Virus record (IMG/VR): IMGVR_UViG_642791630_000009
Origin: a virus
Lineage: Duplodnaviria > Heunggongvirae > Uroviricota > Caudoviricetes
Length of the DNA: 49,569 nt
Reading direction: 5' to 3' (one strand)
The position numbers were made by a program. Numbering within the stretch: position 1 is the first letter of the stretch; every line of letters begins with the position of its first letter. Shown here in pieces: positions 15,001 to 21,000 of this stretch.

Positions 15001-18000
15001 TCACGCTTTTGCAACCGGCGTGCTCGGGTAAAAGAGGTTACTGATGCGTATAGAGTTTGTTTTGCCTTACCCGCCGACGGTGAACACCTACTGGCGACGT
15101 CGTGGCAGCACATATTTTGTATCAAAAGCCGGTGAGCGTTATCGCCGGGCTGTGGCGCTTATTGTTCGCCAGCAGCGGCTGAAATTAAGCCTGTCCGGAC
15201 GGCTGGCAATAAAAATTATTGCAGAACCACCGGATAAGCGCCGCCGTGACCTGGACAACATTCTGAAAGCACCGCTGGATGCGCTGACGCATGCGGAAGT
15301 GCTCATTGATGACGAGCAGTTTGATGAAATCAATATTGTGCGCGGTCAGCCTGTGCCAGGTGGACGGCTGGGCGTGAAGATTTACGAAATCAGAGGTGGT
15401 AACGATGGCGCGTGATATCCAGATGGTTCTTGAGCGATGGGGGGCATGGGCAGCAAATAATCATGAAGATGTAACATGGCCCTCGATAGCTGCTGGTTTT
15501 AAAGGATTAATCCCGACTAAAGTGAAATCACGTCCTAAGTGTTCTGATGATGACGCCATGATAATTTGTGGTTGTATGGCACGATTAAACAAGAATAATC
15601 AGTATTTGCACGATTTGTTGGTGGATTATTACGTAGGTGGAATGACATTTATGGCTCTTGCACGTAAGCATAGATGTTCTGATGGGCTTATTGGTAAAAG
15701 GCTTTATAAAGCGGAAGGTATTATTGAAGGAATGCTTATGGCTCTGAATGTCCGGTTAGATATGGATATGCGGTAGGGATATATAGTGATGAGGGTTATG
15801 TTTTCTGTGTTTATAATTAACATGTTTATTTTTTGATGGTCATGTATTGTGGAAGGTAGATAAAATGTTGCCTGGTGAATTGAAAATATTGATAATCAAT
15901 CTTCATCATTAAATAAAAGGAGTGCTTATGTGGATTGTGTTAGTACTGTCACTGTCAACTCTCAGTTGGCATAAGGTAGTGGCTTTTTCATTGTTGACGG
16001 TGTCTGTTGTCCTGGCTGTGCTTAATGATATTATTGATTGGTCGGTGTTATTTTTTGTTGCTACAATCGTTTTTTTTATTATTTTGAAGTTCAACTGGAA
16101 ATATAACGCCTGGGCTAAATCTATATATGAAGTTGGCATAGTTTTATCAGCCATAGCATTATTTTTCCATCTATGGCCAGGGTTTCACAATCCTGTAGTG
16201 CTAAATTCTGTTACTGTTGGCCCTCAAAGTACTCCCTATACAATGTATTTTAATTTTGATAAAGCGCTGGTGCCATTTTTGTTAGTCCTGTGTACATCTT
16301 CTTTGTTTAAAAAAGAAGTAAAATCAGAAGTGTCTTTGTGGAAGTGGGGGGCTCTGTCGCTCTCTGTTCCTCTTATCCTGTTTTTGGCTGTTTTTTTTGG
16401 TGGATTAAAGCCAGAGATTCATTTTCCTGAGTGGTTGCCAGAGTTTATATTGGCTAATTTGTTTTTTGTGTCTCTGGCAGAGGAATCATTATTTAGAGGG
16501 TATATTCAATCACGGCTATCAGAAGTAACGTCTCCATTGGTTGCATTAATTGTGGCGGCTTTGTTGTTTGGTTTTTATCACTATTCAGGTGGTGCTTTAC
16601 TTGTATTATTTGCCACGTTATCTGGTGTTGTGTATGGATTGTCATGGATGTGGAGTGGGCGTTTGTGGGTTGCCACCCTTTTCCATTTTGGTTTGAATCT
16701 GTGTCACTTGTTATTCTTTACCTATCCATTTTTAAAACATAATTGATTTTTTCTATGGTTTTAAATTTATAAGACTGAAAAATAGCAGGACGTGACATTT
16801 GCATGAAAAATATGCACGGCAAAGCATTTACGTACGTAAAAAATCAGGTATGCTGTTAAGAGTGGTTATTTCGCCGCATAGCTTGACCCCGCCTCTGAGC
16901 GGGTTTTTTGTGCCCGCAAAGTAGCGCAGTGCGTTAAATGTGCTGGTAGTTATTAATACAGGTCTTTCAGCTTGCTGGCTTTTTCGACAAGAGTTATTGG
17001 TGTGTCACGTTAACCGGAAAGGGTAAAAAGACATGCTGAAACAGCAGGATATGACAGAAACCGCCAGAGTTGTGTTTGATGAATTAAGCGTCACCGAACC
17101 GGCGACGGTCGGGGAGATTGCGCAGAATACGTACCTTTCACGCGAGCGCTGCCAGTTAATACTGACCCAGCTGGTTATGCGGGTCTGGCAGACTATCAGT
17201 TCGGTTGTTACAGACGCCTTCAGTCCTGAAGGCTTTTTTATTTGTGGTAAATGGGCGGCTGGTGGGTGTTAGCGGCACCTGTCAGTCCTTTGCTTATGTG
17301 TTGATGATAATTTACCTTTTGGGGCTATAATTGAACTAACCAATTGCTAATGAAAGTAAAATTATAATGGTTGTTGTCTGTTCAGTTATCATGGTTTGCT
17401 CCCCAATTAATATTTTTCTTGAAAAGGATACGTTGTCACTTAAGCCCGGCTCAGTCGTTCTGGCCACCAAATGCATCAGGGCGCTTTTCCTTATGCATTA
17501 TGGCAAAGTTAAAATTTTCGATATAAACCATTCCATAGTAAGTCAATATCTGGAAATTCAGCATAAGCTGACAAGAACTCATCTGACTGACGTTCCGCTT
17601 TATCTGTCACTGGAACCCAACAACCCTGCGTTGGCTGAGGCTTTAATTACCAGCCAGAGATTTTCCGGAGATACCACGGATATGTTTCTTATGATGGCAT
17701 GCCTGTCGCTGTTTGAATCAGATGAACGGATATTATTATTTTTAAGTGGATGTTTATCCAGTATAAGTGCCAAAGTCAGGGCGATAATTCAGACAGATAT
17801 ATCAGCAAGCTGGACGCTTGGTGCGATTGCGTTACGCCTGCATATGAGTGAGAGTTTGTTAAAGATAAAACTGAAAAATGAAGGGCACATGTTCAGTCGC
17901 TTGTTGCTGGAAGAGCGGATGCGTGTTGCTGTCAATATGTTATGTTCCCGGCATGGATATGGACAGGCTGTAGCAGAAAAATGCGGTTATTCAAGCTGGT

Positions 18001-21000
18001 CCTACTTTATTTCTGTATTTCACCGCTATTATGGCTTCCCGCCAGACAGATATGTATCCAGGCAAGGGCTTGATTATTGATTTTCATCTGATTATTATTT
18101 TTTGACCCAGCCCTTTAGCTCAGTGGTGAGAGCGAGCGACTCATAATCGCCAGGTCGCTGGTTCAAATCCAGCAAGGGCCACCATCACATACCGCCATTA
18201 GCTCATCAGGAAAGAGCGCCAGCTTTCGAAGCTGGTTGCGCGGAGTTCGGGTCCCCGAAGGCGGTCCATTATCTGTATCCTGCGTTGTTAGCTCAGCCGG
18301 ACAGAGCAATTGCCTTCTAAGCAATCGGTCACTGGTTCGAATCCAGTACAACGCGCCACACTTATTTTCCCTGGCTCGCTTTTGCGGGCCTTTTTTTTAA
18401 ATGTCTCACAATTCAGGCGGTTGACTGTTGTCTGGTTTGCGGGGAGTTTGTTAAAAGAAACTGGCATGGTGAATCCCCCTGTGCGGAGGGGCAATCAGCG
18501 AGTAGGTATATGGGATAATCGCGGATTCAGGTGCTGGTACTGAATTCACCGGGAGGCACCCGGCACCATGCAATGGCACATAGCGCCACTCTCCAGCCCC
18601 TCTCCGGAGGGGCTTTCTTATGGACAAAAAAAGCCCGCGCAGGGAGACGCGGGCGGCAAGGAATAAACAACAAAACGTGAAGTAATATTTCAGCTGGCGA
18701 ATAATATCCGACAGTAATCACTCTGCGCAATAGCGCGGCCTTTTTCGTATTGCGGGCTGTTGTCTCTCTTCTGCCATTGTCCTGTAACTTCCGGACTTCA
18801 GCCCGCTCCTCATTTTACTCACAATATTATCCCGGCCGGGAGGATTCATGGCATTTAAACACTATGATGTTGTCAGGGCGGCGTCGCCGTCAGACCTTGC
18901 GGAAAAGCTGACACACAAACTGAAAGAGGGCTGGCAGCCATACGGCGGACCGGTTGCCATTACGCCGTACACACTGATGCAGGCGGTGGCTATTGAAGGA
19001 GATCCACAGGTCGGCCCTTCATCTAAGCCGGACTGGTTCTACGTGGTTGTGCTTGCCGGACAGTCCAACGGCATGGCCTACGGTGAAGGGCTTCCGTTAC
19101 CGGATTCTTACGATGCTCCGGATCCGCGCATTAAACAGCTGGCGCGCCGCAGCACGGTAACTCCGGGTGGAGAGAGTTGTACGTATAACGACATCATTCC
19201 GGCCGACCACTGCCTGCATGATGTGCAGGATATGAGTACGCTGAATCATCCGAAGGCAGACCTGAGCAAAGGGCAGTACGGCTGTGTCGGCCAGGGCTTA
19301 CATATTGCCAAAAAACTGCTTCCGTATATCCCGAATAACGCGGGGATCCTGCTGGTACCATGCTGTCGTGGTGGTTCTGCATTCACCCAGGGCGCTGAGG
19401 GGACATTCAGTGCGGACACGGGGGCCAGCCAGGATTCGGCACGCTGGGGTGTGGGTAAACCGTTATATCAGGACCTGATTGCGCGCACTAAAGCTGCATT
19501 ACAGAAGAACCCGAAAAATGTGTTGCTGGCGGTGTGCTGGATGCAGGGAGAGTTTGACATGAGCGCCGCCACCCACGCACAGCAACCTGCGCTGTTTACA
19601 GCCATGCTGACACAGTTTCGTGCTGACCTCTCCGTGTTTAACGCGCAGTGCCATGGTGGCAGTGCTGCAGATGTGCCGTGGATTTGTGGTGATACGACGT
19701 ATTACTGGAAAAATACATACGCTACCCAGTACGACACCGTGTACGGCGGGTATAAAAACAGGGAGAGTGAGGGCGTTTATTTTGTGCCCTTCATGACAGA
19801 CGGTAACGGCGTCAATACCGCCACTAACGCGCCGGCAGAAGATCCGGATATTCCGGCATCAGGATATTACGGTGCGGCATCGAGAACGAATGGAAACCAG
19901 GTATCATCAAACCGCCCGACACATTTCAGTTCATGGGCGCGCAGGAGCATTATTCCGGATCGTCTGGCAACCGCTATTCTGAACGCAGCCGGGCGCACCT
20001 CCGCCTTCATCAGTGGTAAGGCACCGGAAATCAAACCCTCGCCCGGCGGCAACACGCCATCGGGTCCGTCTGCAGATACGTCCGTTCGCACAATCTCCCT
20101 GCTGCCGGCAGCCGGAGAGGCTGCTGCGCAGGGCTGGAGCATTAAGGATGGCGGAATTCAGTTGTCAGATGGTGTATTTAAGATCACCAGGCAGAGCAAT
20201 AAAACCTGGTCCCTGACGCATCCGGTGGATGACGCAATTACCCTGCTGACACAGGGCGGCAGACTGAACTGTAAGTTCCGCCTGTCAGGCGCACTGACCA
20301 ACAATCAGTTCGGGCTGGGGATTTATCTGTATACGGATGCTCCCGTTCCTGATGGTGTGGCGATGACGGGTACCGGTAATCCGTTCCTGATGTCGTACTT
20401 CACTCAGACCACTGACGGCAGAGTGAATCTGATGCATCACAGGAAAGCCGGAAACACGAAGCTGGGGGAGTTCGGCGATTACGGTAACGACTGGCAGACG
20501 CTGGAGCTGGTGTTCACCGCCGGCAGTGCCACGGTTACTCCGAAACTGAATGGAGTGGCTGGCCCGGCATTCCAGGTTATAAAAGACAGTCTGACACTGG
20601 GACTGAATGCGCTGACGCTGACGGATGTTACAAAAAATGCAGCGTATGGCGTTGAGATAGAAAGTCTGGTGCTGGAGATAAATGCACCGGCAGCATAATA
20701 AAAAAAGAGCCAGCGACTGACCTGAAAGAAGACGCTGGCTAAAAGGCCTTATATGTTTGTAGAGACTTATTTTTCACAGACAGCAATGATGCCTGTCAAT
20801 ATATTATCAATATGCGGATTGAACCGCCCCGGAAATCCTGGAGACTAAACTCCCTGAGAAAGAGGTAAACAGGATGACTAAAAATACTCGTTTTTCCCCC
20901 GAAGTCCGTCAGCGGGCGATTCGTATGGTTCTGGAAAGTCAGGATGAATATGACTCACAGTGGGCGGCAATTTGTTCCATTGCCCCAAAGATTGGCTGTA

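Follow-up and report, generated by a model that had tools for sequence, protein, structure and literature searches.

The 49,569-nucleotide viral stretch IMGVR_UViG_642791630_000009 (the window, by which we mean this whole length of DNA) contains, directly behind its antiterminator Q gene, an AT-rich interval at positions 15777–18100 that a preliminary description read as one moron cluster of a CPBP/Abi-family membrane protease gene, a small open reading frame (ORF) and an AraC-family regulator gene. Our analysis indicates that this interval is, in all likelihood, the late-control backbone of an Sp4-type prophage with one independent cargo cassette on either side of it. Both cargo genes are already known, from one of the most intensively studied bacterial genomes, and the locus is therefore not new, nor is it a single module under Q control. 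As a whole, the window is an Sp4-type lambdoid prophage of Escherichia coli O157:H7, collinear with Sp4 of strain Sakai (99.9% and 99.0% identity), from which its sole structural difference is 237 additional bases at the IS629 site. By BLAST, positions 15000–18700 were 100% identical to Sakai Sp4, and the 3.1 kb around the flagged interval were 100% identical to many E. coli O157:H7 chromosomes.

All features of the interval lie on the + strand. The Q gene (ECs1084/Z1786; 15396–15776) is of the 933W type, as seen from its PF06530 match (E 8.7e-52), its 79% identity to 933W Q and its annotation in Sakai. It is followed by the first cargo slot (15777–16826), here a single-gene cassette recognisable by its G+C content, by a gap in homology and by the different or missing cargo of related loci; its gene, ECs1085 = Z1787 (15928–16746, 272 residues), encodes the CPBP protein. 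The backbone then begins with the late promoter PR′ and a qut/initial transcribed block (GTTAAGAGTGGTTA; 16827–16887), followed by a first late-leader hairpin with a U-run (T1; 16888–16909), the remnant ECs1086/Z1788 (17033–17272) and a second hairpin with a U-run (T2; 17216–17239), the putative equivalent of tR′. An 802-bp second cargo slot (17304–18105) carries ECs1087 = Z1789, the 237-residue AraC/XylS-family gene psrA (17367–18080; 100% identical to Sakai), and the tRNA genes ileZ, argN and argO follow at 18109–18358 (ARAGORN and RefSeq). Pfam, ARAGORN and the ORF listing thus confirm the placement of the cargo genes behind Q and ahead of the tRNA cluster. The Sakai annotation reads Q, “CAAX amino terminal protease family”, hypothetical protein and AraC family for ECs1084 to ECs1087, and supplementary tables for strain EDL933 give the gene order Z1785 (RusA), Z1786 (Q), Z1787, Z1788 and Z1789.

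Composition separates the cassettes from what lies between them. G+C content is 0.359 in the CPBP cassette and 0.401 in the psrA cassette, against 0.513 for the whole window and a low-GC yardstick of 0.407 (the 5th percentile of its 1-kb windows). The 477 bp between them (16827–17303) have a value of 0.484 and belong to the backbone, so that the proposed AT-richness of all three genes held for the two outer ones and failed for the middle part. The terminator scan listed 12 terminator-like sites where 4.0 ± 2.6 were expected, and the observation flagged in this interval is real and well above chance.

The boundaries of both cassettes were visible in BLAST comparisons with four related loci. Homology to phiP27 and to a prophage of E. 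coli strain 19AR1724 is absent across the CPBP gene and resumes at 16839/16854; in loci that carry a methylase instead of the AraC gene, it stops at 17303 and resumes at 18106, by the tRNAs. What remains between the cassettes is a conserved 465-bp core containing a 65-residue gene. We used this small gene as the anchor for a survey of 83 loci, 80 of them fetched from IMG/VR viral contigs. The first slot, from Q to the core, is empty in 50 of the 83. Elsewhere it holds the CPBP gene (seven loci plus the window), a WYL-like 205-residue protein (eight), a lipoprotein (four), an ORF6N protein (four), either of two different two-gene modules with no known function (three and two), a MazF/PemK-like toxin (two) or, in phiP27 alone, a protein matching the defence model PD-Lambda-1 (E 2e-89). 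The second slot, from the core to the tRNAs, holds a DNA methyltransferase gene in 39 loci and the AraC gene in 30. CPBP is paired with the AraC gene in five loci (the window counted) and with the methylase in three, while the AraC gene co-occurs with at least six other first-slot contents or with none, and so with all types of first-slot content. These mixed pairings show that the two cassettes were acquired, and move, independently. The presence/absence comparison therefore bears out horizontally acquired cargo beside Q, as do the AT-richness of the CPBP segment and the homology gap, and it dissolves the three-gene unit, with backbone lying between the two cassettes.

The survey also turned up cargo of other kinds. 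One of the two-gene modules (in L016, L027 and L029; about 3270–4740, minus strand) encodes a 308-residue protein and a 182-residue membrane protein, and the other (in L031 and L075; about 2340–4740, minus strand) an NA37-like, nucleoid-associated protein of 391 residues and a membrane protein of 404 residues. Both are AT-rich and without a PADLOC match, and we regard them as candidate uncharacterised defence or exclusion systems. Three loci with a PF06323-type Q (L046, L079 and L078) have their cargo inserted past PR′ and the first hairpin, followed by a second copy of the hairpin; the MazF/PemK-like toxin is the cargo of L046 and L079. The insertion point in all three differs from that of the window's Q type.

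Placement of the late promoter follows from homology to phage 933W and from a conserved arrangement across the surveyed loci. Positions 16827–16909 align base for base with the annotated pR′ (TTTACG-16-TATCAT), qut and first “possible terminator” of 933W, with a −35 element TTTACG at 16827–16832 and a −10 element TATGCT at 16849–16854. PR′ of the window can accordingly be assigned to 16827–16854, directly after the CPBP cassette, with a predicted start near 16861; exact start sites and terminator efficiencies are predictions throughout this text. The 83 loci carry four Q families (PF06530, the type of the window; DUF1133 with PF06530; PF06323; PF03589), and loci of all four have in common a hairpin with a T-run, placed roughly 130 nt ahead of the small gene. 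Its stems show compensatory changes between loci, for example CCCGC/GCGGG versus CCACC/GGTGG, and each Q family has its own conserved block directly 5′ of it. The block of the lambda-type Q, TTGATT-16-TAAATT-TGCYCTAACGATGGG, matches lambda PR′ and its initial transcribed sequence. That of the window's Q type starts with a −35-like element, continues with a spacer rich in A and TATnnT, and closes with GTTAAGAGTGGTTAC. All loci of this type have it immediately 5′ of the hairpin, at distances from the Q stop codon that vary between 76 nt, where the slot is empty, and 2509 nt.

Both hairpins of the leader have counterparts in 933W. T1 was listed by the terminator scan (hairpin 16888–16903 with a T-run; fold −14.9 kcal/mol for a 55-nt leader), and T2 (fold −10.5 kcal/mol, z −2.45) occupies the position of the second 933W terminator. 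Sy et al. 2020 placed the PR′ start and the tR′ 3′ end of Sp5, the Stx2a prophage of Sakai, 258 nt apart; we used this distance because the published start, 1,266,203, refers to NC_002695.1 numbering, which is shifted in version.2. In 933W, 258 nt lead from about 7 nt after TATCAT exactly to the end of the second hairpin. T1 is therefore probably leaky, and T2 is the probable tR′ equivalent by position. We also considered T1 as the counterpart of tR′ and favour this less, since in 933W/Sp5 the second hairpin is the site of the dominant 3′ end. To judge by StxS of Sp5 and Sp15 (the Stx2a and Stx1 prophages of Sakai), PR′ of Sp4 should constitutively give rise to a short leader RNA; it would measure about 50 nt if it ended at T1 (16855–16909) or about 380 nt if it ended at T2 (16855–17239), in which case it would span the small gene with its frameshift. 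Transcription of Z1788 is detectable in EDL933 without induction.

The small middle ORF (79 residues, 17033–17272) could be aligned with the conserved 65-residue gene, L23 of phiP27 and phrog_331 (E 6e-37), from which it differs by the loss of one G at 17179/17180. The intact frame would stop at 17227–17229, and T2 overlaps that stop codon. Differences among intact copies are mostly synonymous, which marks a real gene elsewhere, and the middle ORF of the window is, by this alignment, a pseudogene of a backbone gene. The 79-residue product has no Pfam match; an intact homologue reached 17.8 bits against Pfam TrmB (cut-off 25.6), making it weakly winged-helix-like, and RefSeq, through PGAP, labels ECs1086 of O157 as “TrmB family, frameshifted”. 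We also considered the 65-residue gene as a homologue of lambda orf-64, in the PR′–tR′ leader of lambda, and found no homology. The backbone would thus run, in order, through PR′, qut, the first hairpin, the small winged-helix gene and the second terminator.

This order bears on the control of the CPBP gene, which had been described as Q-dependent and as having its own terminator. Q loads onto polymerase only at PR′, and the CPBP gene, lying between Q and PR′, should therefore be beyond its control; its position upstream of the late promoter predicts a gene that is not Q-dependent. The hairpin exists, but as T1 of the backbone late leader it is present whatever lies upstream. Published expression data agree with this arrangement. 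In RNA sequencing of EDL933 under 11 non-inducing conditions (in the order lysogeny broth (LB), pH 9, pH 4, 15 °C, nitrite, antibiotics, solid, minimal, spinach, radish and faeces), the values, read as normalised expression, were 5, 4, 2, 4, 6, 0, 4, 0, 2, 1 and 0 for Z1786 (Q), 39, 23, 6, 9, 18, 51, 24, 31, 5, 3 and 9 for Z1787 (CPBP), and 7, 18, 6, 16, 12, 0, 3, 10, 11, 10 and 12 for Z1789 (psrA). Z1787 is hence about 8-fold above Q in LB in the uninduced lysogen and uncoupled from psrA, and the level of the Q transcript is too low to explain its signal. In two non-O157 strains of STEC (Shiga toxin-producing E. coli), a transcriptome paper of 2020 found the CAAX protease gene on in planktonic cells and 3- to 13-fold lower after adherence. 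We propose that the CPBP protein would be made in the uninduced lysogen from the AT-rich region upstream of its gene and, after induction, probably also by read-through from the early operon, its transcripts running into the backbone hairpins.

It is tempting to see CPBP, small ORF and AraC gene as one co-acquired, AT-rich moron operon, switched by Q, seated in the slot of the Shiga toxin (Stx) genes and forming a module for defence or regulation that would be new: the genes adjoin one another and share a strand in the stretch from Q to the tRNAs, AT-richness holds for two of their three segments, and all three occur together at no less than 99% identity in about 540 E. coli genomes. We nevertheless hold this to be extremely unlikely. 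The 477 bp of backbone with PR′ and two hairpins split the cassettes, a methylase replaces the AraC gene in three of eight CPBP loci, the AraC gene occurs with at least six alternative neighbours or none, the small ORF is a backbone pseudogene, and the CPBP gene lies upstream of PR′ and is expressed well above Q without induction. The toxin slot, moreover, is elsewhere, as stx lies downstream of the tRNAs in both 933W and phiP27, where the window has an STnc100-like RNA and a sialate esterase gene. Nor is the module undescribed, since the AraC gene is PsrA and the CPBP gene Z1787, both of them published.

Comparison with the two toxin phages shows how the same backbone can be filled. 933W and Sakai Sp5, the source of StxS, share with the window a Q 79% identical, the pR′/qut block, the first hairpin, the tRNAs ileZ-argN-argO and a downstream SASA esterase gene. 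In 933W, however, pR′ overlaps the end of Q and the first slot is empty, whereas in the window the CPBP cassette separates Q from PR′; 933W also lacks the small winged-helix gene, has only the 3′ end of the methylase in the second slot and carries stx2AB after the tRNAs, while the window has psrA in that slot and no toxin. The methylase remnant (...GVELESGRFEQTVREVQNVVSQNG) was all that we found in 933W from tR′ to the tRNA promoter (1460–1580 of the extracted locus), and it marks the 933W arrangement as a deletion derivative of a methylase-carrying layout. phiP27 (Stx2e; L21–L24) has the same layout as the window, of Q, first-slot cargo, 65-residue gene (L23), second-slot cargo and tRNAs, but it has a PD-Lambda-1-like GIY-YIG nuclease in the first slot, a DNA methyltransferase in the second, an intact L23, and stx2e after the tRNAs.

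The regulator gene of the second slot is psrA itself, with no difference at the level of the gene; ecs1087 on Sp4 is named psrA in a paper of 2026. The AraC-family assignment was upheld by Pfam, with a C-terminal double helix-turn-helix above the cut-offs of PF12833 (36.6 bits; cut-off 33.6) and PF00165 (35.3 bits; cut-off 26.6). The nearest curated profiles are YdeO and GadX. The NCBIfam YdeO profile covers residues 1–229, which favours the 237-residue start of RefSeq over the 195-residue start of Sakai, where ECs_1087 as annotated maps to 17493–18080. According to two reviews of Tree et al. 2011, PsrA (z1789), a regulator of the AraC/XylS family, increases GadE and YhiF, which in turn leads to repression of type III secretion from the LEE (locus of enterocyte effacement), and it aids persistence in sheep, a ruminant host; PsrB is a paralogue 90% identical to PsrA, and PatE a further relative. 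The suggestion that a prophage AraC regulator here might affect acid resistance and type III secretion thus describes, as far as these reviews report it, the published effect of PsrA. Our analysis adds that the gene forms a separate cassette of 802 bp, and that related loci have a DNA methyltransferase gene in its place at this backbone position.

This cassette begins with ATGATA-16-TATAAT (17304–17331), the best sigma-70-like match of the region (10/12). The gene lies downstream of both hairpins, behind its own promoter-like site, and is expressed without induction. We suggest that psrA would be transcribed from its own sigma-70-type promoter and, after induction, would also be read through by Q-modified polymerase. 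A promoter-like TTGATT-17-TATTAT (18070–18098) overlaps the end of psrA close to the tRNAs, and the psrA cassette may supply the tRNA promoter. The first tRNA (18109–18184, anticodon CAU) is called tRNA-Met by ARAGORN and annotated as ileZ (tRNA-Ile) in RefSeq, and a strong terminator (18373–18398; fold −13.8 kcal/mol, z −4.25) follows the tRNA genes. The small RNA HnrS of the 2026 paper was ruled out as part of the locus, being encoded on Sp9, Sp10 and Sp12 and not on Sp4. A psrA-like gene (91% DNA identity) with a small TrmB-like gene is found upstream of the tRNAs in the Stx2k-converting phage phiSTEC1575-Stx2k (16270–17777), which shows that PsrA-type regulators also travel on toxin-converting phages.

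The first-slot gene was identified as Z1787 through the reverse-transcription PCR primers of Jandu et al. 2009, which match exactly at 15945–15965 (+) and 16420–16439 (−). Its best start is the ATG at 15928, preceded by AAGGAG, and the ORF ends at 16746. As described beforehand, the protein belongs to the CPBP family: residues 171–260 match PF02517 at 70.6 bits (cut-off 22.4), and all three motif blocks are present (E185-E186-x3-R190, F214-x3-H218 and H253-x3-N257), with E185, E186, R190, F214, H218 and H253 invariant in an alignment of 31 homologues and N257 conserved in at least 90%. The AlphaFold model, with a predicted local distance difference test score (pLDDT) of 90.5 and a predicted template-modelling score (pTM) of 0.88, shows some eight helices integral to the membrane and no secreted domain. 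The two top matches of the model in the PDB were SpdC (6u0o_A) and Rce1 (4cad_L), with weak statistics (E 0.03–0.06, template-modelling score about 0.35–0.5); they are the two solved proteins of the CPBP fold. The protein shares PF02517, the three motifs and the helical-bundle fold with the superfamily of Rce1, Staphylococcus aureus SpdC, MroQ, LnsB and the myxosortases, but it falls far below all cut-offs of the curated subfamilies and has a loop of its own family. Against the NCBIfam myxosortase/CTERM-sorting models MrtP, MrtS, MrtC, MrtX, MrtZ and MrtJ it scored 19–33 bits, below the cut-offs of 75–325. Assignment to a curated subfamily was dropped, as NCBIfam gave only sub-threshold, domain-level matches to myxosortases and an ABC-permease/CPBP fusion.

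Homologues found by database search form a tight family of 270–276 residues across Enterobacterales at about 50% identity, with a family-specific loop (H81..PGFHN..GP.S.P..MY.NFDKAL.PF) that the phage copy keeps. In Hafnia, Providencia and Photorhabdus these genes are chromosomal, in the order modE-modF-CPBP-gpmA/galE, and share about 50% identity over the full length and all conserved residues with the window protein; the Dickeya and Enterobacter homologues have other locations. Whereas the modF-linked genes are syntenic, the copy in the window is phage-borne, AT-rich and mostly found in E. coli of the enterohaemorrhagic (EHEC) type, and it appears to be a captured member of this host gene family. 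In Hafnia the orthologue starts 5 nt after modF (L007, 4529–6918; L012 and L096 are modF-linked as well). ModF is an ABC-type ATPase without a known membrane partner, and the linkage hints at a functional connection between ModF and this CPBP family. The allele of the window occurs in 572 of 5426 complete E. coli genomes, essentially as a single copy, with 99% identity or more in 547 of them; its serogroups are O157:H7, O145:H28, O111:H8, O26, O103 and O121. E. coli, E. albertii and Shigella also have more diverged alleles (84, 83, 62 and 59% identity), and the 59%-identical allele, the one for which we checked the context, belongs to a Shigella prophage and immediately follows a Q gene of the PF06530 type, so the association of CPBP with this slot is old and maintained.

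What the protein does is a matter of weighing. We give about even chances to a catalytically active inner-membrane glutamic endopeptidase from the host family that would act in cis on an envelope substrate or a membrane-anchored one in the lysogen, and thus serve as a lysogenic-conversion function and not as a phage structural or lysis function. The 2009 proposal was different. Jandu et al. 2009, who described Z1787 as a “putative protease on OI-50”, deleted the gene and proposed the protease to enable EHEC to block epithelial interferon-gamma (IFN-gamma)/STAT-1 signalling: the mutant lost the block of STAT-1 phosphorylation, and the transcript rose 2.7-fold with HEp-2 cells. The 2020 transcriptome paper likewise lists the gene as a virulence factor. 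The gene is the same, but where that paper sees a possibly released protease, sequence and model here point to an integral membrane CPBP protein, which sits poorly with inhibitory activity found in culture supernatant. Complementation and transfer to HB101 gave only partial effects, T84 cells gave no induction (Jandu et al. 2009), and a 2012 paper from that laboratory, with Z1787 nowhere in its text, described the factor as “still as yet unidentified”. Expression, as noted, drops in STEC when the cells adhere. Inserting a resistance cassette 0.6 kb upstream of psrA could also act through PsrA, GadE and the LEE, and we infer that such a polar effect is a plausible alternative explanation of the published phenotype. 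A role in STAT-1 signalling consequently strikes us as improbable.

A role in phage defence, as superinfection exclusion or membrane-level abortive infection within a hot spot between Q and PR′, has a different kind of support. In phiP27 the same slot is occupied by the PD-Lambda-1-matching protein, other occupants include the WYL-like protein, the NA37-like module with its membrane protein and further small modules, a MazF/PemK-like toxin occurs nearby, just past PR′ and the first hairpin, diverged CPBP alleles have repeatedly been kept behind this Q type (as the 59% allele illustrates), and the gene is expressed in the lysogen. Yet PADLOC-DB 2.0, scanned with the CPBP protein and PsrA, yielded no family with an E value of 0.01 or lower, and the CPBP protein had no tblastn match among 50,697 sequenced phage genomes, which left no isolated phage for comparison. 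Our literature search turned up nothing specific tying the CPBP family to phage resistance or to E. coli prophages. Most members of the family are encoded on chromosomes, in a syntenic place by modF, which is untypical of defence genes, the cassette has no partner gene, and the slot carries non-defence cargo too, making slot-sharing weak evidence. We consider a defence function unlikely, and slightly more so its extended form, in which the interval from the Q stop codon to PR′ is an undescribed hot spot of lambdoid prophages for cargo and defence and CPBP a new single-gene, membrane-level exclusion function, lysogen-expressed and Q-independent. Immunity against a bacteriocin or polymorphic toxin, as in several Gram-positive Abi/CPBP proteins, would suit a membrane protein expressed in lysogens; PF02517 offers precedents, and some homologues are named “self-immunity”. 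The cassette, however, was a single gene each time in the eight CPBP loci that we inspected, genes for a toxin, a bacteriocin or export are missing from it and from its flanks (its neighbours are Q and PR′), and chromosomal relatives adjoin modF, gpmA or galE and not toxin genes, leaving this very unlikely.

Several points weigh against our preferred picture of a late-control backbone flanked by independent cassettes, with a lysogen-expressed membrane protease in the first. PR′ of Sp4 is placed by homology and conserved position; the predicted −35 and −10 elements each match at 4/6 positions and were absent from the output of the promoter scan. Ahead of the CPBP gene there are just weak promoter-like sites (9/12), and read-through from Q could contribute to its expression. 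The RNA-sequencing values stand in parentheses in a table whose header is not explicit, and we took them as normalised expression. The EDL933 papers assign Z1787–Z1789 to OI-50/CP-933N, while Sakai has the locus on Sp4. As for the protein, the cassette offers no partner gene from which to deduce a substrate. Some proteins of the CPBP fold, SpdC among them, act as scaffolds and not as proteases.

Other features of the window lie outside the interval. A second AT-rich island at 11200–13400, with G+C content as low as 0.335, lower still than in the CPBP cassette, coincides with ECs1077, a minus-strand gene for an alpha/beta hydrolase, and has the look of a further insertion of cargo, in the early-right region. 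An Rfam scan of the whole window found no family within 15777–18100; all matches lay outside. They include a hok/sok-type toxin–antitoxin locus at 13210–13534 (sok, RF01794, 105.6 bits; hokD-like ORF at 13322–13534), the small RNA DicF at 4422–4473 (minus strand, 76.9 bits) and STnc100 at 18435–18625 (+; 138 bits against a gathering score of 47). STnc100 is the Rfam family of a gammaproteobacterial small RNA; its match sits between the tRNA terminator and the SASA (sialate) esterase gene, the position of stx2AB in 933W. Just past the esterase gene is an IS629/IS3-family element (20874–21742) with an ALIL frameshifting pseudoknot at 21155–21271. Downstream of the IS site, Sakai Sp4 carries pchA and an inverted lysis cassette, which marks the prophage as defective.

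For the biology of these prophages, the analysis corrects the place of the CPBP gene, which would be cargo expressed in the lysogen and not a late gene under Q control. By its sequence, this is a conserved and probably active membrane protease, kept at no less than 99% identity across the major EHEC serogroups. The remaining interest lies in its substrate and in the interval between Q and PR′ as a variable cargo slot. If the protein did prove to be a phage-exclusion or envelope-remodelling factor, it would be of moderate interest for phage defence and for EHEC colonisation.

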